NCBI GenBank assembly: GCA_905210995.1
Contig: CAJLZE010000003.1
Span: 1-56,966 of the forward strand
Source of the DNA: an uncultured Anaerotruncus sp.
GTDB lineage: Bacteria; Bacillota; Clostridia; Oscillospirales; CAG-272
Length of the DNA stretch: 56,966 nt
Reading direction: 5' to 3'
The notes beneath the pieces are model-generated. The model was not told where the DNA came from. It did no database searches and saw only the letters and a list, made by a program, of their open reading frames with translations. Made by a program: the position numbers and the translations under genes. This document shows positions 8,801-18,106 of this stretch, piece after piece (the first letter of the stretch is position 1; each line of letters begins with the position of its first letter).

Positions 8801-9715
8801 ATGAGCAGATACACGGTATTTACCGGGGTCGGCACCGCGCTCGTGACCCCATTTGACGACTCCGGGCACGTTGATCTCGACGCGCTCGGCACGCTTATCG
8901 ACCGCCAGATCGACGGCGGAGCGGACGCGCTCGTGATGACGGGCACAACGGGCGAAGCGCCGGTGCTTTCGGCAGACGAAAAAAAGGAGATATGGCGCTT
9001 TACGCGCGCAAGGATCGACAGCGGCAAGCGAAAGGTCCCGCTCATCGCTGGCAGCGGCGGCAATAACACCGAAGCTGCTGCGGCGCTGGCGCACGATGCG
9101 GAGCTTGCGGGAGCCGACGCGCTGCTTGTCGTGACTCCATACTACAACAAAAGCTCGCAGGCGGGGCTTTGCGAGCATTACAGGCGCATTGCCGGCTCAA
9201 CATCACTGCCGGTGATCGCATATACCGTTCCGTCGCGCACCGGCGTCAATGTAGCGCCGGATACATGGCGCAAACTCGCATCCATCCCGAATATCGTCGG
9301 CGTCAAGGACGCGACCGGCGACCTCAGGCACACCTCGCGGCTCTCGGTCATGCTGGGCGACGAGTCACGCCCGGATTCGCTTGCCGTCTATTCGGGAGAC
9401 GATGAGCTTACGCTGCCGGTGCTTTCATACGGCGGCTGCGGAGTGATATCTGTCGTGTCAAATGTGATCCCGGGCGAGATGCACGAGCTTTGCCATCTGT
9501 TTTTCGGCGGTAAAAACGACGAGGCACTGCGTCTGTGGCGCAGGATAAGCGGCGTCACCGCAGCAATGTTCTGTGACGTGAACCCGATACCGGTAAAAGC
9601 GGCGCTGGCGGAAATGGGACTTTGCCGCCCGTATCTGCGGCTTCCGCTCATCCCGCTCTCGGCAGAGAAGAAAAATACCGTCCGAGCCGCACTGCGGGCA
9701 GCCGGAATGCTGTAA
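8801..9715 (+). CDS. dapA: 4-hydroxy-tetrahydrodipicolinate synthase
   Basis: GVGTALVTPF, GTTGE, YNK and VGVKDATG (Schiff-base Lys) motifs. 304 aa. Confidence 0.9.
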   Translation: MSRYTVFTGVGTALVTPFDDSGHVDLDALGTLIDRQIDGGADALVMTGTTGEAPVLSADEKKEIWRFTRARIDSGKRKVPLIAGSGGNNTEAAAALAHDAELAGADALLVVTPYYNKSSQAGLCEHYRRIAGSTSLPVIAYTVPSRTGVNVAPDTWRKLASIPNIVGVKDATGDLRHTSRLSVMLGDESRPDSLAVYSGDDELTLPVLSYGGCGVISVVSNVIPGEMHELCHLFFGGKNDEALRLWRRISGVTAAMFCDVNPIPVKAALAEMGLCRPYLRLPLIPLSAEKKNTVRAALRAAGML

Positions 9716-9732
9716 GGATATCAAAACAAAAT

Positions 9733-9775
9733 CGGAGGTGCCGAAAAACTCAGAATGAGTTTTTCGGCACCTCCG
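9733..9775. terminator. intrinsic terminator between dapA and the flotillin gene
   Basis: CGGAGGTGCCGAAAAACTC-loop-GAGTTTTTCGGCACCTCCG, a 19-bp stem with T-rich flanks on the minus-sense side. Confidence 0.75.
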
Positions 9776-9782
9776 TAAGGTT

Positions 9783-11219
9783 TTATTCGGCTTTTTCTGC
9801 GGGATGCTCGGATTTTTCCGCCTCCGCGGCAGGCTTTCCGAGGTATTCGGGCAGCTTCATGCCCGCCATGTCGAACAGATCGGTAAGCGGCGGGACCGAC
9901 TTATACAGCCCCGAGATGAACCCCGCGGTGCTGCTCTTTCCGTCGGCGCCGCTCTGTCCGTTGTCCCAGACTGTCACCTTGTCGATCTTGAGGTTCTTGA
10001 CGGCATCGACCTGAATGCGGGTCAGCTCCTCGAGCTTGTCGGTGACCATCAGTCTGATGGCGGCGTTTGCGTCTCCGCCCGCAGCGGCGACGACCTGCGC
10101 AAGACCCTCTGCCTGCTTTACGAGTATCTCTCTCGCACCGGCAGCCTCTGCCTGCATCTTCATGAGTATCGCGTCGGCTTCACCGCGCGCCTTGCGGCGC
10201 ATCTGCTCGGCTTCAGCCTCCGCCTTCAGCTCGGCTTCTCTCTTGGCGATCTCGGCTTTTACAAGAACGTCAGCCTCGAGCTTCGCTCTTTCAAGCTCGG
10301 CACGCGCACCTTCGGCGTCGCGCTGCGCGGCGTAGGATTCCTCCATCGCCTTTGCCGACTGAATGTTTTCGGCGGCAACGGCGCGCTTGTTCGCTTCCGC
10401 TTCTCTTTCGCGGCGTGTCGCGTCGGATTCGGCGATTTTCACCTTCGCCTCGTTCTCACCGGCTATAGCCTCGGAGTTGGCTCGGGAGACATTGATCCTC
10501 TGATCCTTTTCGGCGGCAGACGCACCGATGGCACCGTTTCTGTCAGCCTCGGCGACCGAGATCTTTGCGTCGTTTATCGCCTTTGCGGCAGCCTCTTTAC
10601 CGAGCGCGGCAATATACCCGCTCTCGTCGTCGATATCGGTCACGTTGACGTTTATCAGGCGCAGACCGATCTTTTTGAGCTCTGTCTCAACGTTGCCCGA
10701 AACCGCATCAAGGAACTTGTCGCGGTCGGTGTTGATCTCCTCGATGTCCATCGTGGCGATGACAAGACGAAGCTGACCGAAGATTATATCCTTGGCAAGC
10801 TCCTGTATCTCGGCAAGCTTGAGACCGAGAAGGCGCTCGGCTGCGTTCTGCATCACGCCGACCTCGGTAGAAATACCGACGGTGAAACGCGAGGGAACGT
10901 CAACACGGATGTTCTGGTGCGACAGCGCGTTCGTCAGATCAACCGGGATCGACAGCGGCGTCAGATCGAGATACTCATACGACTGCACGATCGGAACGAT
11001 GAACGCCGCACCGCCGTGAATGCACTTGGCAGAGCGCTGCGTGCCGTCGCGGTTGGTGCCGACCTTACCGTAAATGACCATGATCTTGTCGGAGGGGCAT
11101 TTTTTGTACCTCGACGCGAACACGACGATGAAGGCAAACAGCACGATCACGACCGCCAGAACTATCAGCGGGACCGCGGCGGAAAGTCCGCCCGCGAGCA
11201 TGGGAATGAAGTGTGTCAT
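9783..11219 (-). CDS. flotillin family (SPFH/Band-7) protein, FloT/YuaG-like
   Basis: N-terminal TM helix, SPFH core (IMVIYGK...VDVPSRFTVGI...), and a long Ala/Glu-rich coiled coil (EREAEANKRAVAAE...). GAGGAG RBS. Confidence 0.85.
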   Translation of the reverse strand: MTHFIPMLAGGLSAAVPLIVLAVVIVLFAFIVVFASRYKKCPSDKIMVIYGKVGTNRDGTQRSAKCIHGGAAFIVPIVQSYEYLDLTPLSIPVDLTNALSHQNIRVDVPSRFTVGISTEVGVMQNAAERLLGLKLAEIQELAKDIIFGQLRLVIATMDIEEINTDRDKFLDAVSGNVETELKKIGLRLINVNVTDIDDESGYIAALGKEAAAKAINDAKISVAEADRNGAIGASAAEKDQRINVSRANSEAIAGENEAKVKIAESDATRREREAEANKRAVAAENIQSAKAMEESYAAQRDAEGARAELERAKLEADVLVKAEIAKREAELKAEAEAEQMRRKARGEADAILMKMQAEAAGAREILVKQAEGLAQVVAAAGGDANAAIRLMVTDKLEELTRIQVDAVKNLKIDKVTVWDNGQSGADGKSSTAGFISGLYKSVPPLTDLFDMAGMKLPEYLGKPAAEAEKSEHPAEKAE

Positions 11220-11301
11220 TTTTTATTCTCCTCAAAAATAATTTGGATCGATGTAAATAAGCCGCGAAAGCTCCGTGGCCGCGCAGCACAATCCGTGCGC
11301 G

Positions 11302-11514
11302 TCAGTCGTCCCGCTCTTTGTCCTTGCGGCGCTTGCGCGTCAGAGTTAAGATCGCAGCGGGGACGGCGGCAGCAACGACCGCTCCTGCGGCAAACATCAC
11401 CGCACGCTCGCCCTTTTCGTCGCCCGTTTCGGGCGATGTGGCTGCGTAATTGCGGACATAGTCAAAAATATCTCCGCCGGATATGCGCCAACCGTCGTCG
11501 GTATATACGAGGTC
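11302..11514. repeat. sorting-signal module repeat, long copy (P1 3' end)
   Basis: Nearly identical over ~210 nt to 13125-13334, apart from one extra GTC codon and a few substitutions. Confidence 0.85.
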
Positions 11515-12111
11515 GGCAGTATATGTACCGTCAAAGTAGTCGGGAGGACCTTCGTATGGAGCAGACGCTTTTATTACTGCCACGGTACTTTTGAATTTCA
11601 CGCTCGCGGTTTTGCCATCAGATTTAATGTCAATGCTTTCGCCTCTCAATAATACATCAGGGCAAACGAGACGCAGCCTGTACCAATTTCCGTTCGCTCC
11701 GCGCCTTACGAGTTCAACGTCCGGTCCGCCCGGAACATGAATATCTTCCACCATACGTGCCGCAAGCTCAGGTGTCAGACATTTCTTATAATCCTCGAGT
11801 ACAAAATTACGGATATCCTCGCCGAAATACTTTTCATAGTGTTCGGTATTATTATATTCGAAATAATAGAACGTTTTCCCATTGGCATAAGGAACACCTT
11901 TTGAATCGCACTTGAATCCTACAATTCCGACTATGTTCTGACTTCCTGATACATCGTATAGAGGAACCGAAGCACGCCAAAATTGGTCATACAGATTCTT
12001 GAATGTCTTTCCGTCGAGAGGCTCGATGTCTGATTCCGCCACGGGCAGCAAAGCAAACAACATCGTCAGAATAACTATCAGTGACAATGTAAAAATGCTC
12101 TTTTTTCTCAT
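11302..12111 (-). CDS. secreted protein of unknown function with an SPETG cell-wall sorting signal (paralogue P1)
   Basis: Signal peptide MRKKSIFTLSLIVILTMLFALLPVAES. C-terminus SPETG (11422-11436) + hydrophobic AVMFAAGAVVAAAVPAAILTL + RKRRKDKERDD. Confidence 0.8.
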   Translation of the reverse strand: MRKKSIFTLSLIVILTMLFALLPVAESDIEPLDGKTFKNLYDQFWRASVPLYDVSGSQNIVGIVGFKCDSKGVPYANGKTFYYFEYNNTEHYEKYFGEDIRNFVLEDYKKCLTPELAARMVEDIHVPGGPDVELVRRGANGNWYRLRLVCPDVLLRGESIDIKSDGKTASVKFKSTVAVIKASAPYEGPPDYFDGTYTADLVYTDDGWRISGGDIFDYVRNYAATSPETGDEKGERAVMFAAGAVVAAAVPAAILTLTRKRRKDKERDD

Positions 12112-12145
12112 GGTGTTCTCTCCTTTTTGTTTGCTTTTATTTATT

Positions 12146-12265
12146 TCAGTCCTGCTCTCTGTCCTTGCGGCGCTTGCGCGCCAGTGTCACGATCGCAGCG
12201 GGAACAGCGGCGGCAACGACCGCTCCCGCGGCAAACATCACCGCACGCTCGCCCTTTTCGTCGCC
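12146..12265. repeat. sorting-signal module repeat, short copy (P2 3' end)
   Basis: About 120 nt closely similar to the 3' ends of P1/P3/P4 (TCAGTCC.GCTCT.TGTCCTTGCGGCGCTTGCGCG...CATCACCGCACGCTCGCCCTTTTCGTCGCC). Confidence 0.8.
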
Positions 12266-12985
12266 AGTCACCGGTGACGTTGCAGAATCGCCTAACGCCC
12301 ATGCAACAAAACTACACTCACCGATTTTCCATCCCGAATCAGTTTTTACAAACAAAACGCGGTAATCATTCGAAAGTTGTGTTACACCGCTCGTGCGTGT
12401 AAATATCAATGAAGCTTCCTCGCCGTTGCATCTAAAGTCACGAAAATCATGGTACGTCACAGGATTGAAACTGTCGTTCTGTGTCCCGTAGCCTTCGTAA
12501 TATTTCAGAAGTATTCCATCACTGTCATATCTGAATATCTCTATCGGTACAGCTCTTTTTTCGCGCGGGTGATGGAAGTTTGTCATTTCATCTGCAATAT
12601 TATCGACATAATATTGTTTTGCGTACTCTTTCCAAGCATCTACGGTTAAATACTTGCATTCAGGATCAAGGTCAAGATAATTATAGCTTTTTTTCCATTG
12701 ACCGTTCTTGCTATACGACTCCCCTGATGTTGAAGTACTGAAAGCACGCACATTATCTTCACGTATCGTATAACTCCCGTCCGCCCCCATATCCTTAACA
12801 ACATTATACATATGCTGAAATTCGTCAAACGGGTGTTGGATGTGCGACATACATTCACGCGCATTTTTGAATATATCCAACGCATCATCATATGTCAGTG
12901 CGACTGATTCGGCTTTTACACCAACACACACGCAAGTGAATAGAAGAACTATGCTCATTGCCGCTGCTATGATCATCTTTTTCAT
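12146..12985 (-). CDS. secreted protein of unknown function with an SPVTG cell-wall sorting signal (paralogue P2)
   Basis: ORF 12146..12991 (TTG). ATG at 12985 follows GAGG. Has a signal peptide. SPVTG at 12263-12277 + TM + RKRRKDREQD. The mature domain is AT-rich. Confidence 0.8.
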   Translation of the reverse strand: MKKMIIAAAMSIVLLFTCVCVGVKAESVALTYDDALDIFKNARECMSHIQHPFDEFQHMYNVVKDMGADGSYTIREDNVRAFSTSTSGESYSKNGQWKKSYNYLDLDPECKYLTVDAWKEYAKQYYVDNIADEMTNFHHPREKRAVPIEIFRYDSDGILLKYYEGYGTQNDSFNPVTYHDFRDFRCNGEEASLIFTRTSGVTQLSNDYRVLFVKTDSGWKIGECSFVAWALGDSATSPVTGDEKGERAVMFAAGAVVAAAVPAAIVTLARKRRKDREQD

Positions 12986-13124
12986 TTTCAAATTACCTCA
13001 CCACTACGATTCAAGATACCGAAATACTATCCAGTGACTAACTGAATCATATATTTCATTCTCTCCTTTTGTTTGTTTTTGTGTCTTATAATATTTTTGT
13101 GACTTATAATATTATATATTTAAT

Positions 13125-13334
13125 TCAGTCCCGCTCTTTGTCCTTGCGGCGCTTGCGCGTCAGAGTTAAGATCGCTGCGGGAACGACGGCGGCAACGACC
13201 GCTCCTGCGGCAAACATCACCGCACGCTCGCCCTTTTCGTCGCCCGTTTCGGGCGATGTGGCTGCGTAATTGCGGACATAGTCAAAAATATCTCCGCCGG
13301 ATATGCGCCAACCGTCGTCGGTATATACGAGGTC
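13125..13334. repeat. sorting-signal module repeat, long copy (P3 3' end)
   Basis: See 11302-11514. Confidence 0.85.
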
Positions 13335-13985
13335 AACGGTGCAATCCATTTTTATTTCTTTATCGTTTGGATACTTTATTATGATATCCGCCCTTCTCTC
13401 AAGATCAATAACCCCGACGTTTGCATTGCATTTGACCTCCGCATTTTTTCCGTCAACACGTATACTGTCCACCCTGCTCACAAATAGTATCGGCTGTATC
13501 AGGAACAGCTTATACCACTTTCCGTCGCTCTCCTGACGTGTGAGTTCGACATCCGGTCCGCCCTCAACGTGATAATCCTCGGTAAGCCGATCCGCCAATT
13601 CGGGAGTCAGACAGCTCCTCAGTTCCTCCGCAGCTTCGGCACGCACCTTACTAATATCTATAGTGCTGCTTCTGCTGTAATCGATATAGTAATAACTTTT
13701 ACCGTTTGCGTATGCAACACCATGTGAATCACATCTGAACAGCTTTACCGGATAGGGGACTTGCGATGTATTCAAATGAAACAAAGTAAAAGCACTGGGA
13801 GAATTGAAAACTTTAAGCATCAACTCTTTAAACACTGTTTCGGTCAGTTCATCAACCTTAGTTTCCGCATCAGCCGCTCCTACGGAAAGCACGGTACCGG
13901 CAGCAAGCAAGACAAAAACAAGCAAAATCGAAAGCAGTCTGAGTTTTACGGCGTGTAAACGTGTGAAAATGCGTTCTCTTTTCAT
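13125..13985 (-). CDS. secreted protein of unknown function with an SPETG cell-wall sorting signal (paralogue P3, homologous to P1)
   Basis: Signal peptide MKRERIFTRLHAVKLRLLSILLVFVLLAAGTVLSVGAADA. SPETG at 13242-13256 + TM + RKRRKDKERD. The mature part aligns with P1 (CLTPELA..., GGPDVEL, VYTDDGWRISGGDIFDYVRNY). Confidence 0.8.
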   Translation of the reverse strand: MKRERIFTRLHAVKLRLLSILLVFVLLAAGTVLSVGAADAETKVDELTETVFKELMLKVFNSPSAFTLFHLNTSQVPYPVKLFRCDSHGVAYANGKSYYYIDYSRSSTIDISKVRAEAAEELRSCLTPELADRLTEDYHVEGGPDVELTRQESDGKWYKLFLIQPILFVSRVDSIRVDGKNAEVKCNANVGVIDLERRADIIIKYPNDKEIKMDCTVDLVYTDDGWRISGGDIFDYVRNYAATSPETGDEKGERAVMFAAGAVVAAVVPAAILTLTRKRRKDKERD

Positions 13986-14005
13986 GGTGTTCTCTCCTTT
14001 TGTTT
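13930..14005. repeat. 5' module repeat (signal-peptide n-region + RBS), P3 copy
   Basis: GAAAGCAGTCTGAGTTTTACGG(C/T)GTGTAAACGTGTGAAAATGCGTTCTCTTTTCATGGTGTTCTCTCCTTTTGTTTG is shared with 15028-15104. Confidence 0.8.
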
Positions 14006-14018
14006 GCTTTTATTTATT

Positions 14019-14150
14019 TCAGTCCCGCTCTCTGTCCTTGCGGCGCTTGCGCGTCAGAGTTAAGATCGCAGCGGGGACGGCGGCAGCAACGACCGCTCCT
14101 GCGGCAAACATCACCGCACGCTCGCCCTTTTCGTCGCCCGTTTCGGGGCT
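14019..14150. repeat. sorting-signal module repeat, short copy (P4 3' end)
   Basis: About 130 nt near-identical to the P1/P3 3' ends. The upstream junction 13979-14025 also matches 12107-12150. Confidence 0.8.
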
Positions 14151-15083
14151 TTTGCCAAGGCGTTGTGCGTATATGGCAAGTCTGCGTGCAATCTCTGCCG
14201 AGTCCTCGTCACTTTCACTTATATAAGCATAATCATTTCCGTAGGAGGATTCGCCGTACTTCGCCGCAAAAGTGAGAAAGCTGTAGTAATCATACCAATA
14301 CTCGTCCGAATAGTTCCATGTTTCAAGGGTTTCGATAGAAGCATCCAGTACGTATCCGTACGAGACAAAGAGGTCCTTACGCATCATCCACATTTCCTCG
14401 TTGTCATGTTGGTATGAAATGAATTTTTCGGCTTTCGGGGTATCTGAGGCAAATGCTACCGGATTTATCACCAGTCCCGGCTCCAAAAACGTTTCCATGG
14501 CAACTCTGCCGTCATCGCTGTATATAGCATCGGCAAATATCTTCACAGCCTCATCGAGTGAAAAGCGCTTATCCCCTAAAGGACCTTCTTCCGTCCGTGA
14601 TATAATGTAGTCTCTGAATAGGCTTTCGAATTCGGCACGCGGTATGTCATATTATCTGACGTAATAATACACCAGCGGCATACCGGTCTTCAGAAATTCG
14701 GTGTAATAAAAATCAGATATTTCCTTTCCCTCGGCGGTCAGATACTCGTTTGCGTTTTTGTACTTATCGCGGGGATATAAATATTCGAGACAATAATAGT
14801 ATGCGCTGTGGCAATACACCGGAGCCCCTTTATACGACCATGTAAAGTAGCCGCCTTGCATATACGAAAGAAATTTATCCTTTCTTGAAACAAGACCCGC
14901 GTATTCAAGTTTGGCAGGGTCTCCGGTGCGTGAGGTCGCACTTCCGGTCACAGCAAATGCACTCAAAACAATGCTTACAGCAAGGATCATGAGTAAAACA
15001 GCTTCAGATATTTTCATCGCCTTATTTGAAAGCAGTCTGAGTTTTACGGTGTGTAAACGTGTGAAAATGCGTTCTCTTTTCAT
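14019..15083 (-). pseudogene. fourth SPETG-anchored paralogue (P4) interrupted by one in-frame TAA
   Basis: ORFs 14652..15128 (signal peptide, no anchor) and 14019..14546 (anchor, no signal peptide) are in the same frame (1110 nt = 370 codons). A single TAA at 14652-14654 separates them, and the sequence between them stays open. Confidence 0.75.
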
Positions 15084-15104
15084 GGTGTTCTCTCCTTTTG
15101 TTTG
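15028..15104. repeat. 5' module repeat (signal-peptide n-region + RBS), P4 copy
   Basis: See 13930-14005. Confidence 0.8.
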
Positions 15105-15202
15105 TTTTTTATCTTTACAGAACCGCATGCGGCTCTGCGAAGTGCTTACTGCTTCCGGTCGTTACGTTCCGGCGCGGGGCGTGCGCCGTGCGCTCACATT
15201 TT

Positions 15203-15946
15203 TTATTTTACGGCAGCGCGGGATATGCGCACGTTTATCTCATCGAGATATGAGTCGGCATCCGCGTCGGCGAGCACAGGCAGATCGGCCGCTGCGGTGC
15301 CGTCATGCGCCGTGAGCACTATATGACGATATTTTGTTCTGCCCTCGTACAGCGACGAACCGGCATCGGTGTCGGCGTATGCGGCGGATGCAAGGTCGGA
15401 ATAGGCGATCTCACGGAAGAGCTCATCGGCACGGTCCTCGGTGAGGCTCACGCGGCGCTCGCCTATACAGATCGCCCCAGGCTTCAGCATAAAGCCCGAA
15501 AGCGAATATACCGACGAACGTTCTCTGCCGTCGTTCCCCTTTTTGAAGAGCGCCGAGGGATCGTCGAAAAAGTATGTACCGAAAAACACGGGATCGGTGT
15601 GGTGGTCCTCGCTCGCACCGCCGTAGCGATGTTCGTTCCTATATTTTATAACGTCTGTATTAATAAATTTGTGACAAAAATCGACGCGAAACGGCTCCGA
15701 AAGTGCCTGAGCGCACTCGTCAAGCTCGGAATCCTTTATCCTCACTGCGGATATTGCGACCGCAAGCACAACGCCCGCCGCGAGTATCGGAAAACCGATG
15801 ATGCGCATAAGCCCGCGCGGCAGACCGCTCGTGCTTGCAAGGAATATGACCATGATAAAACCGACCGCAATGAGCGCCGCGGCAATGACTATCGGGTATG
15901 TTGTGTTTTTCTGTTCAAAATACTTCCGGGTGCGTTGATAATTCAT
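15203..15946 (-). CDS. membrane protein of unknown function (2 TM + cytoplasmic domain)
   Basis: 247 aa with two N-terminal hydrophobic helices (YPIVIAAALIAVGFIMVIFLA, IIGFPILAAGVVLAVAISAV). I recognise no motif. Confidence 0.6.
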   Translation of the reverse strand: MNYQRTRKYFEQKNTTYPIVIAAALIAVGFIMVIFLASTSGLPRGLMRIIGFPILAAGVVLAVAISAVRIKDSELDECAQALSEPFRVDFCHKFINTDVIKYRNEHRYGGASEDHHTDPVFFGTYFFDDPSALFKKGNDGRERSSVYSLSGFMLKPGAICIGERRVSLTEDRADELFREIAYSDLASAAYADTDAGSSLYEGRTKYRHIVLTAHDGTAAADLPVLADADADSYLDEINVRISRAAVK

Positions 15947-16036
15947 AAAATGTGCCTCGCTGCGCTGATTACCCGCTCTATTATATAATACGGATAATAT
16001 CGCTTTTTTTCTTCAACTTTTTTTATTTTTTTCGAT

Positions 16037-16639
16037 TTATTTTTTCAGAGGCTCGACAACGAGCACTCCGCCCTCGCTCACCGACACGACTCTGACATAA
16101 ACGCCTGTTCTGAGCGCGCTGTCTCCCGTCGTTATCGCGGGGAATTCGCAGAATTTCTCCTGAAGGGTGATCGTCACCTTGCCCGAGCCTTCTCCGTTAG
16201 CGGGCACCGGAATATATATCTGCGCCACCTTGCCGATGGCGTTGGATATGTCGATATTTCCCGACGACTGCAGCTTATACACGCCCCTCATGAGGAACGC
16301 GATACCGACAAGTGCCGCAACGCCCGCAGCCACGGCGATAAGGATTGCCAGCCAGTCGGGCATAGATGTCTCAAGAAGCGCGACTCCGAGCCAACCCGTT
16401 ATGCAGAGCATCGAGAGGATGCCGCGCATGGAAAACAGCGAAAGCCCGTCGTCAACGGCTGCCGCGGCGTCGATATCCGAATCGGGTATGCCGTCGCCGT
16501 CTATGTCCTCCGGCACGTCGTCTCCGCCTATGCCGATAAGCTGTATCACCGTCTGGATGATGAGCAGCGCGGTCGAGGGGATGGCAATTAGCGCAAATAT
16601 CTGCTGCGCGAGTTCAAGTCCGTTCCACCAGTTTATCAT
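16037..16639 (-). CDS. NfeD-like membrane protein (YuaF-type, C-terminal OB-fold)
   Basis: Three TM helices, an acidic loop (DDVPEDIDGDGIPDSDID), and a C-terminal GKVAQIYIPVPANGEGSGKVTITLQEKFCEFPAITT...VRVVSVSEGGVLVVEPL typical of the NfeD OB domain. Confidence 0.7.
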   Translation of the reverse strand: MINWWNGLELAQQIFALIAIPSTALLIIQTVIQLIGIGGDDVPEDIDGDGIPDSDIDAAAAVDDGLSLFSMRGILSMLCITGWLGVALLETSMPDWLAILIAVAAGVAALVGIAFLMRGVYKLQSSGNIDISNAIGKVAQIYIPVPANGEGSGKVTITLQEKFCEFPAITTGDSALRTGVYVRVVSVSEGGVLVVEPLKK

Positions 16640-16721
16640 AATGAAAATGCCTTGCCTTTCTCATCCGGCAGCGGCGCACAGCCCGCCGGACATAAAATTC
16701 GATGATCGTGCGGCTCTGCCT

Positions 16722-17306
16722 TCATGCCTGCATGAGGCGGTCCACCATTGCGTCGGAGCCGCTCTTGATGATCGACGCATAGTAGGCGATGACTATGATC
16801 TCAAGCGCAGTGTTGAGCCTTCTGCGCGCACCGCTTATCTTTTCTTCATAGTCGGAGGTCACGCGCTCTATGCACTCCTTCAGCGTTTGCTCGTCGGTCT
16901 CGCCGTCGGCGTTCATAAGCTCGTCGAGTATGCGGCAGATGTAGTCGTAAAGCAGCGAATCGCGGATGATATCGTCCGAACGGTCGTAAACGCGCCCGTT
17001 GATATATGAGATAAGAAAAGCGATCTTGTCGAGCTGCATGCACGACCGCAGCATATTGATAATAAGTATATGCGCCAGTTGATCTATATCGTACTTTTTC
17101 AGCTTTGCGTTCGCCACCCATCCGCGCTTTGTCCAGTTCTGAAGGGTCGAGCCGTCAATGCCCGATATCTCCCTGATCTGCGACAGCATTATGCCGTCCT
17201 GAATGTAGAATATTTTTTTGAGGAACTCCATTCCCGTGACGTTTCCCATGGTGTCCCGTCTCAGTACCGTGCCGGGAATATACACGTCGTTGATCTGAAG
17301 GTTCAT
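16722..17306 (-). CDS. DUF1836-like protein (putative HTH)
   Basis: 194 aa. The segment MLSQIREISGIDGSTLQNWTKRGWVANAKLKKYDIDQLAHILIINMLR matches my memory of the DUF1836 family signature. Confidence 0.5.
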   Translation of the reverse strand: MNLQINDVYIPGTVLRRDTMGNVTGMEFLKKIFYIQDGIMLSQIREISGIDGSTLQNWTKRGWVANAKLKKYDIDQLAHILIINMLRSCMQLDKIAFLISYINGRVYDRSDDIIRDSLLYDYICRILDELMNADGETDEQTLKECIERVTSDYEEKISGARRRLNTALEIIVIAYYASIIKSGSDAMVDRLMQA

Positions 17307-17340
17307 ATCTTTCTGCCTCCGTGAATATTGCAGTGATTTT

Positions 17341-17369
17341 ATTATATCATACAGTCACGCGATTGTCAA
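17341..17369 (-). promoter_or_regulatory. consensus sigma-A promoter for the DUF1836-NfeD-...-flotillin operon
   Basis: Minus-sense TTGACA (17364-17369), exact 17-nt spacer, TATAAT (17341-17346), about 35 nt upstream of the ATG at 17306. Confidence 0.7.
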
Positions 17370-17409
17370 CGGAAATTCGCTGATATCCGCATCATTTTTG
17401 AAATTTGGC

Positions 17410-17457
17410 AAAAATATCGAACCGGCTGCCGCACCAACGTGCACCAGCCGGTTCGAT
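17410..17457 (-). terminator. intrinsic terminator of the HAD hydrolase gene
   Basis: Minus-sense TCGAACCGGCTG-loop-CAGCCGGTTCGA followed by TATTTTTGCC. Confidence 0.75.
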
Positions 17458-17461
17458 CGTG

Positions 17462-18106
17462 TTATACACCGAAAAGCGGCGCAAGCTCCGAGAGCGTTCG
17501 CACCTCGGCATCCGGCTGCATATCCGCATCGACGGGCGAAAAAAGGCAGAACTGCCCCGTGCGCACTCTGACGGTCATCATGCCGAGCGCGCGCGCGGGC
17601 TTTATGTCGTTATCGGGACGGTCACCCACCATCACCGCGCGCTGCGGCTCGCAGCCCGCTTTTTCGAGCGCGAGCAGAAAAATTGCGGGATCCGGCTTTT
17701 CGATCCCCACATCGGCACTTGATATCACAAGAGATATATAAGAGTCGAGCCCGAAACGGTGAAGCCGCTCTGCGGCTCCCGGGAGCTGATTGGCTATCAC
17801 CCCGAGCCTGTATTTTGCCGAAAGTCTGTCAAGCGTCTCCGCTGCGTCGGGATACGGCTTTTCGCACTCTCCGGTATACGGTACATATTTTGCGCCTATC
17901 CTGCGGCAGGCGCGGGAAAACGGCGGTCTGCCCTCGGCACCGAGTCTGTATGTAAGCTCTTCGAACTCGTCAACGCCGATCTCCTTTCCGCCATGCTCAG
18001 CAGCCTCGGCTATTGCAACAGCTGCGCGGCGGCGGTGCTCGTCCGACTCATCCACAAGGGTAAACCCCATGTCAAAAAATATCCACTCCGCATTTCTGAG
18101 ATCCAT
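17462..18106 (-). CDS. HAD-superfamily hydrolase
   Basis: N-terminal FFDMGFTLV (motif I-like) and C-terminal MVGDRPDNDI (motif IV). 214 aa. Confidence 0.7.
   Translation of the reverse strand: MDLRNAEWIFFDMGFTLVDESDEHRRRAAVAIAEAAEHGGKEIGVDEFEELTYRLGAEGRPPFSRACRRIGAKYVPYTGECEKPYPDAAETLDRLSAKYRLGVIANQLPGAAERLHRFGLDSYISLVISSADVGIEKPDPAIFLLALEKAGCEPQRAVMVGDRPDNDIKPARALGMMTVRVRTGQFCLFSPVDADMQPDAEVRTLSELAPLFGV

Follow-up and report, generated by a model that had tools for sequence, protein, structure and literature searches.

In Streptococcus pyogenes, the emm and emm-like genes of the mga regulon occur one to three in tandem, with conserved signal-peptide and wall-anchor ends and variable middles; their copy number and content vary between strains at a fixed chromosomal slot, and their sorting motif is LPXTG. 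In C. difficile, the sortase SrtB cleaves SPKTG, a motif of the (S/P)PxTG class, between T and G (PMC4371152). Flotillin genes of the NfeD2-SPFH2 type, such as that of the yuaF-floT(yuaG)-yuaI operon of B. subtilis, lie downstream of a short NfeD-like gene, and additional genes can lie inside these operons (Hinderhofer et al. 2009, Figure 7 legend; PMC2636767). Among flotillin-associated rhodopsins (FArhodopsins) of SAR11, HIMB59 and Pseudothioglobus, 93% are collocated with flotillin across distant taxa (PMC10308929). The locus described here, in contig CAJLZE010000003.1 of an uncultured Anaerotruncus sp., combines known kinds of element in a new way: it is a hypervariable locus of predicted sortase-substrate cassettes embedded in a flotillin operon. 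The whole 57-kb stretch analysed is referred to as the window, and the claims that an earlier note had made were followed up across its minus-strand run of genes at positions 9783-17369.

We consider it likely that a lineage-specific, recombining array of surface-protein cassettes was inserted into a conserved four-gene flotillin operon. The genes and repeats concerned are as follows.

16722..17306, minus strand: DUF1836 gene, first gene of the operon, 194 amino acids (aa), predicted helix-turn-helix (HTH) regulator (PF08876, E 1.1e-10)
16037..16639, minus strand: gene for an NfeD-like (YuaF-type) membrane protein, 200 aa, with transmembrane (TM) helices at the N-terminus, an acidic loop and a beta domain at the C-terminus
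15203..15946, minus strand: third operon gene, conserved in the genus, 247 aa, with two predicted TM helices, a helical linker and a predicted PH-like beta-sandwich
14019..15083, minus strand: cassette 4, an allele of a 354-aa secreted, SPETG-tailed protein inactivated (K144*) by an in-frame TAA at 14654-14652
13125..13985, minus strand: cassette 3, secreted and probably NTF2-like protein of 286 aa, SPETG-tailed; identity is 50% with cassette 1 and 58% with L006_262 of another species
13059..13087, minus strand: decayed copy of the cassette leader and ribosome-binding site (RBS), AAACAAAAGGAGAGAA, followed by a 7-codon open reading frame (ORF) (direct-repeat family D4)
12146..12985, minus strand: cassette 2, secreted protein of 279 aa, SPVTG-tailed and divergent within the domain family; ATG at 12985, as called in L001
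11302..12111, minus strand: cassette 1, 269-aa secreted, probably NTF2-like protein with an SPETG tail (SnoaL_4 E 7e-5, below the cut-off)
11305..11514, 12149-12355, 13128-13334 and 14022-14228, minus strand: conserved 3' end of all four cassettes (repeat family D1)
9783..11219, minus strand: flotillin gene (SPFH2-type), last gene of the run, 478 aa (Band_7 PF01145, E 3.6e-25)

Read from the promoter on the minus strand, the order is DUF1836, NfeD-like, 2-TM, four SP[EV]TG-tailed ORF groups (15128 to 11302) and flotillin, with intergenic gaps of 33-139 nucleotides (nt). The distance of about 4.8 kb between the NfeD-like and flotillin genes, to which the earlier note had drawn attention, is confirmed.

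Homologues of the NfeD-like protein were looked up in public assemblies for comparison of their neighbourhoods. In three sister lineages (L009-L014, L015-L018 and L019), the NfeD-like protein is 86%, 78% and 62% identical to that of the window, and flotillin 83-93% identical. The neighbourhood in these lineages consists of genes for an M50 peptidase, a HAD hydrolase, DUF1836, the NfeD-like protein, a 2-TM protein of ~250 aa and flotillin; the flotillin gene starts 16-53 nt past the stop codon of the 2-TM gene, and SPxTG genes are lacking. Alignment of the junctions with those of the sister species places the insertion between the 2-TM stop codon and the preserved flotillin RBS. The array also differs in composition, its guanine plus cytosine (GC) fraction being 0.46 versus 0.557 for the remaining operon, i.e., ~10 points lower. 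Judged from gene order, the ancestral unit in this genus is DUF1836, NfeD-like, 2-TM PH-like and flotillin. The suggestion of the earlier note that a conserved gene set had received an insertion is thus supported by the array-free sisters, the low GC and the strain-variable content of the slot. Its description of NfeD and flotillin as immediate operon partners stands in part: the two genes occur together in most relatives, but the unit of this genus comprises four genes rather than an adjacent pair.

Variability between strains is observed directly in the window's own species, where more than 45 contigs carry a flotillin that is 99-100% identical and at least seven configurations of the slot, with one to five cassettes each. 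Given as product lengths in aa, these are 286-279-269, which is the commonest, 354-286-279-269 (the type of the window), 354-277|546-268, 354-835-279-286-269, 287, 354-287 and 354 alone. Because the cassettes vary between strains, their products are candidate strain-specific surface antigens or interaction factors.

The cassettes of the window have conserved ends. Their DNA identity is 85-100% over the last 120-200 nt, ~30-50% in the interiors and 65-95% across the leader and RBS where the leader is common, cassette 2 having a different leader. The 3' repeat (71-98% identity over 207 nt) encodes ...SPxTGDEKGERAVMFAAGAVVAAAVPAAILTLTRKRRKD. Each cassette is equipped with its own RBS (AAAGGAGAGAACACCATG) and a Sec signal peptide, in which a basic n-region, a hydrophobic core and an A-x-A-like site can be recognised by eye (e.g., LLPVAES, GVKAES, SVGAAD and SAFAVT). 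Comparison of the window array (11302-15083) with those of L006 and L008 reveals that the tails are near-identical among paralogues within a genome and differ between genomes; the mature domains have closer relatives in other genomes than among their paralogues. The 287-aa cassette of L002 is 99.7% identical to cassette 3 of the window, 58% to L006_262 and 50% to cassette 1. From such patterns, the tails appear to be under concerted evolution through gene conversion, possibly tracking the sortase of the host.

The array was earlier described as four secreted, SPxTG-tailed paralogues. Four leaders and four tails are indeed present, but one of the genes is broken, and the mature domains of only three are related. 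In this part, cassettes 1 and 3 share 50% identity and cassette 2 is ~37% identical to both (for cassette 3, over 224 aa with E 1e-15). The 354-aa protein has only the leader and tail in common with the other cassettes; its mature domain is unrelated to theirs and matches no family. ORFs 14652-15128 and 14019-14546 are in one frame, split by a single TAA, and the allele differs from the intact one of L003 only by a single A>T change (AAA>TAA, Lys144) at 14654-14652, so that the window holds three intact cassettes and one nonsense allele. Alignment to the intact alleles in L003 and L001 sets the true start of cassette 4 at the ATG at 15083. Its exact truncated product of 143 aa is recorded in 3 contigs, and further truncated alleles of 159, 221 and 267 aa fall in the same 90% cluster, which indicates recurrent inactivation.

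Other pseudogenised cassettes are evident as well: in addition to K144* of the window, there is a split C39_2 gene in L106 and there are other truncated alleles. The decayed leader, which sits in the AT-rich 139-nt gap between cassettes 3 and 2 (12986-13124), is probably what an earlier recombination or the loss of a cassette left behind. Conserved ends, a decayed leader and pseudogenes together constitute the signature of a recombining, concertedly evolving cassette locus, and we infer that the recombination is homologous and occurs between the conserved ends.

The module is also found at other loci in other species. In L006/L007, an 825-aa C39_2 gene followed by genes of 262 and 264 aa lies between rpsT and an aminotransferase gene, and in L008 a leucine-rich repeat gene, a gene for a 305-aa C39_2 homologue and genes of 255 and 275 aa adjoin a LytR_cpsA_psr gene. 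Neither NfeD nor flotillin was found near these arrays within the fetched loci, which extend 6-10 kb to each side. This bears on the other explanation offered in the earlier note, the coupling of a flotillin microdomain to the secretion or anchoring of surface proteins. Spelled out further, a flotillin/NfeD scaffold would assist the export or sortase anchoring of the proteins encoded beside it, and the array would be placed for co-expression with this scaffold. Homologous arrays at unrelated loci in two species, away from NfeD and flotillin, had been named in advance as evidence against such coupling. The same strand, the short gaps and the lack of terminators are in keeping with coupling; there is a published precedent in the cargo-like FArhodopsin gene that is co-transcribed with flotillin (PMC10308929), and flotillin is reported to support the assembly of secretion machinery (PMC5718613). 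Nevertheless, the three sister lineages with near-identical operons lack cassettes, the number and identity of the cassettes vary freely, pseudogenes included, and the low GC of the array suggests a foreign origin. We regard coupling of this kind as unlikely, and a dedicated functional link of the cassettes to flotillin is not supported. The position of the array inside the flotillin operon is most likely historical, reflecting a permissive, well-expressed intergenic site.

The use of this slot in other lineages was assessed by a flotillin alignment scan with one genome per species, which returned at least 80 loci, mostly from Oscillospirales and other Clostridia, a few records being labelled Bacilli or Acholeplasmataceae. 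DUF1836, NfeD-like and flotillin genes occur together in most of these loci, and the gap between NfeD and flotillin is usually below 200 nt. In ~11 of 80 loci among the matches listed, and in L020, an insert of 0.6-6.7 kb separates the two genes; extra genes inside the NfeD-flotillin operon are therefore recurrent. The earlier observation that extra genes interrupt the synteny is accordingly real for the window, but is not unique to it. The inserts of other lineages are mostly genes for small multi-TM proteins, one to ~ten per slot, and the families differ by clade; they may represent flotillin clients or neutral insertions. Some consist of tandem paralogues, namely ~ten genes in L022 (2296-9001), two of ~400 aa in L024 (6042-9001) and three of ~190 aa in L039 (4514-6413).

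Inserts between the NfeD-like and flotillin genes are also seen in L021, L025, L026, L032, L096, L064, L071 and L086. In L020 (10393-10911), a 172-aa protein with no signal peptide and no Pfam match is encoded between the 2-TM gene and flotillin, exactly where the window has its cassettes.

Several points weigh against the reading of the array as an inserted surface-protein locus. The slot is never empty among the >45 contigs of the window's species, which could reflect selection for position. About a dozen lineages fill the NfeD-flotillin slot, mostly with membrane-protein genes, and this is compatible with a functional tie; constant occupancy and the inserts of other lineages both speak for coupling. 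Alignment with the sisters reveals no mobile-element hallmarks, target-site duplications or inverted repeats at the junctions of the array. A motif search of the six frames of the window found no ORF with the TLxTC motif of a sortase, and internal promoters or partial termination may exist within the run. Along these lines, the slot in Oscillospirales and related Clostridia could be conceived as a recurrent docking site for membrane-anchored or secreted client proteins whose expression and organisation would be tied to the flotillin/NfeD scaffold, an idea that we hold to be improbable. Its clients to date may comprise small multi-TM proteins, the PH-like 2-TM protein and the sortase-substrate cassettes. 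If it were true, the operon-internal genes would amount to a genomic list of flotillin cargo and the DUF1836 operator to their common switch.

Transcription of the array was considered on the basis of the following features.

17341..17369, minus strand: operon promoter TTGACAATCGCGTGACTGTATGATATAAT, composed of a -35 element, a 17-nt spacer with an extended TG, and a -10 element; 12/12 consensus
17351..17366, minus strand: imperfect dyad ACAATCGC|GTGACTGT, candidate operator, overlapping the -35 element and spacer
9733..9775: intrinsic terminator, a perfect 20-bp hairpin located where the flotillin and dapA genes converge (terminator scan; inverted repeat I2)

The promoter, TTGACA-17-TATAAT with upstream TG at 17369-17341, is the sole perfect match in the 10 kb scanned. 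It is kept upstream of the DUF1836 gene in relatives, with 12/12 matches in 33 and 11/12 in 16 of the 55 distinct upstream sequences, and in all 49 of the 55 that score at least 11/12 the spacer is 17 nt long. On the minus strand, the hairpin at 9775-9733 is the one strong terminator, and the two further matches within the run are weak; terminator-like matches overall number 11, compared to 10.6 expected from shuffles. The seven intergenic regions do not fold more stably than shuffled sequences and contain no U-tract hairpins, no promoter-like site of at least 9/12 was found at the array or flotillin junctions, and no Rfam match was obtained in 9500-17600 at E<=1. Both the consensus promoter and the lack of a convincing terminator before 9733-9775, as reported in the earlier note, are thereby upheld, the former by its 12/12 score and its conservation in relatives, the latter by the terminator scan, the comparison with shuffles and the junction folds.

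One strand, short gaps, one consensus promoter and no excess of internal terminators characterise the run as a predicted operon. Most likely, the operon promoter also serves the array by read-through, with no polar effect on flotillin, co-transcription being deduced from this arrangement. In the sister species flotillin has only 16-53 nt upstream of it, and must therefore depend on upstream transcription. Since flotillin is strongly conserved in the array-bearing species, the array must either let transcription pass or bring its own promoter.

Such a promoter would be expected if the array were an autonomous module with separate regulation that is embedded here by chance, consisting of a secreted C39-like cysteine peptidase and wall-anchored NTF2/IseA-like binders or inhibitors; in that case, flotillin would rely on a promoter within the array or downstream of it. 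This proposal, which does not exclude an insertion into the flotillin operon, draws on the recurrent association of a C39_2-type gene with NTF2-like SPxTG genes in three separate lineages (L001/L106, L006/L007 and L008), which suggests a peptidase-plus-binder module. The 835-aa and 546-aa products of the window's species contain a Peptidase_C39_2 domain and the common cassette leader, and lack the sorting tail; in L106 the gene is split into two ORFs of 277 and 546 aa. A TATAAT hexamer in the AT-rich 139-nt gap upstream of cassette 2 is also in its favour. On the other hand, the peptidase gene is lacking in the window and in the commonest strain configuration, and the promoter scan of the junctions was negative, as described above. 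The proposal further relies on a link to IseA, an inhibitor of DL-endopeptidases, for which two of seven remote relatives (P0176 and P0183) provide PF16800 matches of 28.8 and 22.8 bits versus a cut-off of 29.9 (E 1.4e-6 and 9.6e-5). Among the close members only one of 25 matches, with E 0.13, the family profile has no sequence match in the PDB, and the structural model is of low confidence. The cassette domain may be distantly related to a cell-wall hydrolase inhibitor, judging from these remote relatives, although the close members give no support; with sub-threshold matches and no PDB match, homology to IseA was set aside as a lead only. As a whole, the autonomous module appears to us rather doubtful.

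Large secreted C39_2 proteins are encoded beside NTF2-like SPxTG genes in L001 (5705-8212), L106 (5601-8091), L006 (6662-9139) and L008 (8206-9123). These proteins also carry a sub-threshold ricin-type lectin region.

Examination of the mature domains with hidden Markov models (HMMs) and structure prediction, as recommended in the earlier note, yielded sub-threshold and low-confidence NTF2-like matches, and no match for the domain of the 354-aa protein. SnoaL_4 is matched below threshold by cassette 1 of the window (23.2 bits versus 24) and in 13 of 25 family members. The AlphaFold 2 (AF2) model of cassette 1 is of low confidence (pLDDT 63), and the best Foldseek matches are all NTF2-like, with TM-scores of 0.2-0.5. 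The mature domain is probably NTF2-like in three of the four window cassettes, an assignment that is tentative because the model is weak. The family is rare: a word-indexed search found 28 clusters among 5.8 billion proteins, and of 1.84 billion representatives searched in full with an HMM, 99 proteins match at E<=1e-3 and only 9 at E<=1e-30. The remote relatives keep a DGWR[IV]SGG strand and [SNAI]PxT[GSA]D tails, and some contain two to three repeats of the domain. A role in anti-phage defence was also considered and rejected, as the PADLOC scan of all operon and array proteins gave two marginal matches (E ~2-3e-3).

The C-terminal tails of all four cassettes exhibit the canonical tripartite layout of a sorting signal, wherein SP[EV]TG is followed by DEKGERAVM, ~19 hydrophobic residues (FAAGAVVAAAVPAAILTLT) and the basic RKRRKDKERD(D). 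In the alignment of the 25-sequence family, whose members are 34-50% identical to the window protein, the P, T and D of SPxTGD are invariant, and the G nearly so, at fixed spacing. The tail appears to be an (S/P)PxTG-type sorting signal like those of the C. difficile SrtB substrates, and anchoring by a sortase is deduced from this likeness. The 23-mer GGCGACGAAAAGGGCGAGCGTGC from the tail occurs in exactly 4 copies in the window, with 0 expected, and its exact matches in JGI metagenomes are three, all at this same locus, so that there is no sign of further substrates or of a nearby sortase. The NCBIfam models of sorting signals (TIGR01167 for LPXTG, and those for SrtB) match none of the cassettes at E<=0.1, which is weak evidence because the motif is of the non-LPXTG type.

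Alternatively, the tails might not be sortase signals at all, the products being type-I membrane proteins that are held by their C-terminal helix and possibly serve as flotillin clients. The negative TLxTC search and the unmatched NCBIfam models would fit such proteins, as would the occurrence of TS, TA or TSD instead of TG in some family members and the plain multi-TM proteins in the inserts of other lineages. We find this very unlikely in view of the tripartite layout with its motif, hydrophobic stretch and basic tail, the constancy of P, T, D and, nearly, G among such divergent members, and the agreement of the motif with the validated one of C. difficile SrtB (PMC4371152).

The labels given earlier to the DUF1836, 2-TM and SPFH/flotillin genes are corroborated by Pfam, the AF2 model and PDB matches, respectively. 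The flotillin exhibits the SPFH/Band_7 domain and the long EA-rich coiled-coil domain characteristic of flotillins. Its best PDB matches, nearly full length, are human flotillin-1 and -2 (E 4e-24); with flotillin-1 (9l3g), the match covers residues 66-458 (E 3.7e-24). Against the FloT equivalog model NF058507 of NCBIfam, it scores 171 bits versus a cut-off of 700 and is thus a member of the same family but not an equivalog.

The NfeD-like label is supported at the level of the family. The window protein itself has no Pfam or NCBIfam NfeD match at E<=0.1, but 10 of 20 aligned members match PF01957 NfeD, the lowest E being 4.4e-5. The family profile also has two weak matches, one to YuaF of B. 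subtilis that covers the C-terminal domain (2k14, E 0.047) and one to the stomatin operon partner protein 3wwv (E 0.66). JGI names the homologues 'membrane protein implicated in regulation of membrane protease activity' (COG1585-type). Translation and alignment place hydrophobic segments at ~13-35, 70-90 and 95-125, followed by a beta-rich tail (GKV..YIPVP..GKVTITLQE..VRVVSV..LVVEP); the length and the helices-then-all-beta layout are those of NfeD proteins (~140-200 aa). The operon position supports the label as well, since most of ~75 loci have the homologue less than 200 nt upstream of a flotillin gene of the same strand.

Structure prediction for the 247-aa protein (15203-15946), likewise recommended in the earlier note, produced a model with two TM helices and a PH-like domain (pLDDT 79.9, pTM 0.70), in which the PH-like sandwich carries a C-terminal helix. 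The best Foldseek matches are PH domains, those of Vps36 (2cay) and the bacterial PH domain 3hsa, with weak scores. The family is narrow, with 17 homologue clusters restricted to this genus-level group, and the gene was found in L009-L020. By the positive-inside rule, the PH-like domain is predicted to be cytoplasmic, which would put it on the same side as the SPFH domain of flotillin, the cassette proteins being extracytoplasmic.

The DUF1836 gene lies directly upstream of the NfeD-like gene in the loci of most relatives, and DUF1836 is assigned to the HTH clan of Pfam (PMC3146951). Conservation of the promoter extends far beyond its hexamers. The centre of the dyad was located by scanning 53 distinct promoters, species-level sequences upstream of DUF1836 genes (L009-L100), and the consensus AC-NN-TCA-NN-TGA-NN-GT covers the -35 element together with the spacer. 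Among these promoters, the core T8 C9 ... G14 A15 is invariant or nearly so, whereas positions 6/17 and 7/16 covary between the half-sites in such a way that symmetry is preserved; the pairs include ACAATCAC/GTGATTGT, ACAGTCAC/GTGACTGT, ACGGTCAC/GTGACCGT, AAGTTCAC/GTGAACTT and ACATTCA-N3-TGAATGT. As the dyad is located upstream of the -10 element, it would be a protein-binding site rather than an RNA hairpin, and it looks like the operator of a dimeric regulator. The DUF1836 protein is the obvious candidate for an autoregulator acting on it, being a member of the HTH clan and the product of the gene that always comes first. A literature search found no paper describing a DUF1836 operator. The promoter palindrome of the DUF1836-NfeD-flotillin unit represents a testable regulator-operator pair for bacterial flotillin expression.

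Taken together, the strong consensus promoter with its palindromic operator would drive a long transcript from DUF1836 to flotillin, on which each cassette would be translated independently from its own Shine-Dalgarno sequence. After export of the products by Sec, a presumed SrtB-like sortase would cut them at T|G and attach them to peptidoglycan. Homologous recombination at the conserved 5' and 3' ends would generate duplications, deletions, swaps and pseudogenes, and would thereby change the number and order of cassettes between strains, giving one to five of them. Such turnover would be consistent with diversifying pressure on surface-exposed proteins; flotillin is under strong purifying selection in the window's species.

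What looks like a flotillin-sortase system is thus most simply a hypervariable surface-protein locus that landed in a housekeeping operon, and it cautions against the over-reading of synteny. The main value of the locus lies in a rare family of strain-variable surface proteins, in the repeated occupation of the NfeD-flotillin slot and in the candidate DUF1836 operator that is conserved among relatives. The cassettes form a small uncharacterised NTF2-like family, presumably wall-anchored, that varies between strains of a prevalent human-gut Clostridia species, and illustrate clearly how signal-peptide and sorting-signal ends can evolve in concert around mature domains that are exchangeable. Genes that are repeatedly found in the NfeD-flotillin slot could be mined for flotillin clients.

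Like the NfeD2-SPFH2 operons exemplified by yuaF-floT(yuaG)-yuaI, the window operon has a short NfeD-like gene upstream of flotillin on one strand (PMC2636767). Unlike yuaF-floT, it begins with a DUF1836 HTH gene whose conserved promoter contains the candidate operator, and it includes the PH-like 2-TM gene and, in this species only, one to five SPxTG cassettes; there is no yuaI-like acetyltransferase, and the flotillin is far below the FloT equivalog cut-off. The FArhodopsin clusters are similar in that the gene of a membrane protein, a possible client, is co-located and co-transcribed with flotillin (PMC10308929). The association in the window, in contrast, is limited to a single species, and members of the cassette family are found at other loci without flotillin. 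With the C. difficile SrtB substrates, the cassette products have in common that they are secreted proteins of Clostridia with a C-terminal SPxTG, a hydrophobic stretch and a basic tail (PMC4371152). In the window, however, the motif continues to SPxTGD, an acidic/basic spacer of 9 residues is present, and the cognate sortase is a presumed one; the mature domains (NTF2-like and of the 354-aa type) are unrelated to those of the C. difficile adhesins, and the genes are arrayed as recombining cassettes. The emm cluster differs in fold, organism and sorting motif, and is not located inside a housekeeping operon, but resembles the array of the window in its conserved ends, its variable middles and a strain-variable content at one slot.

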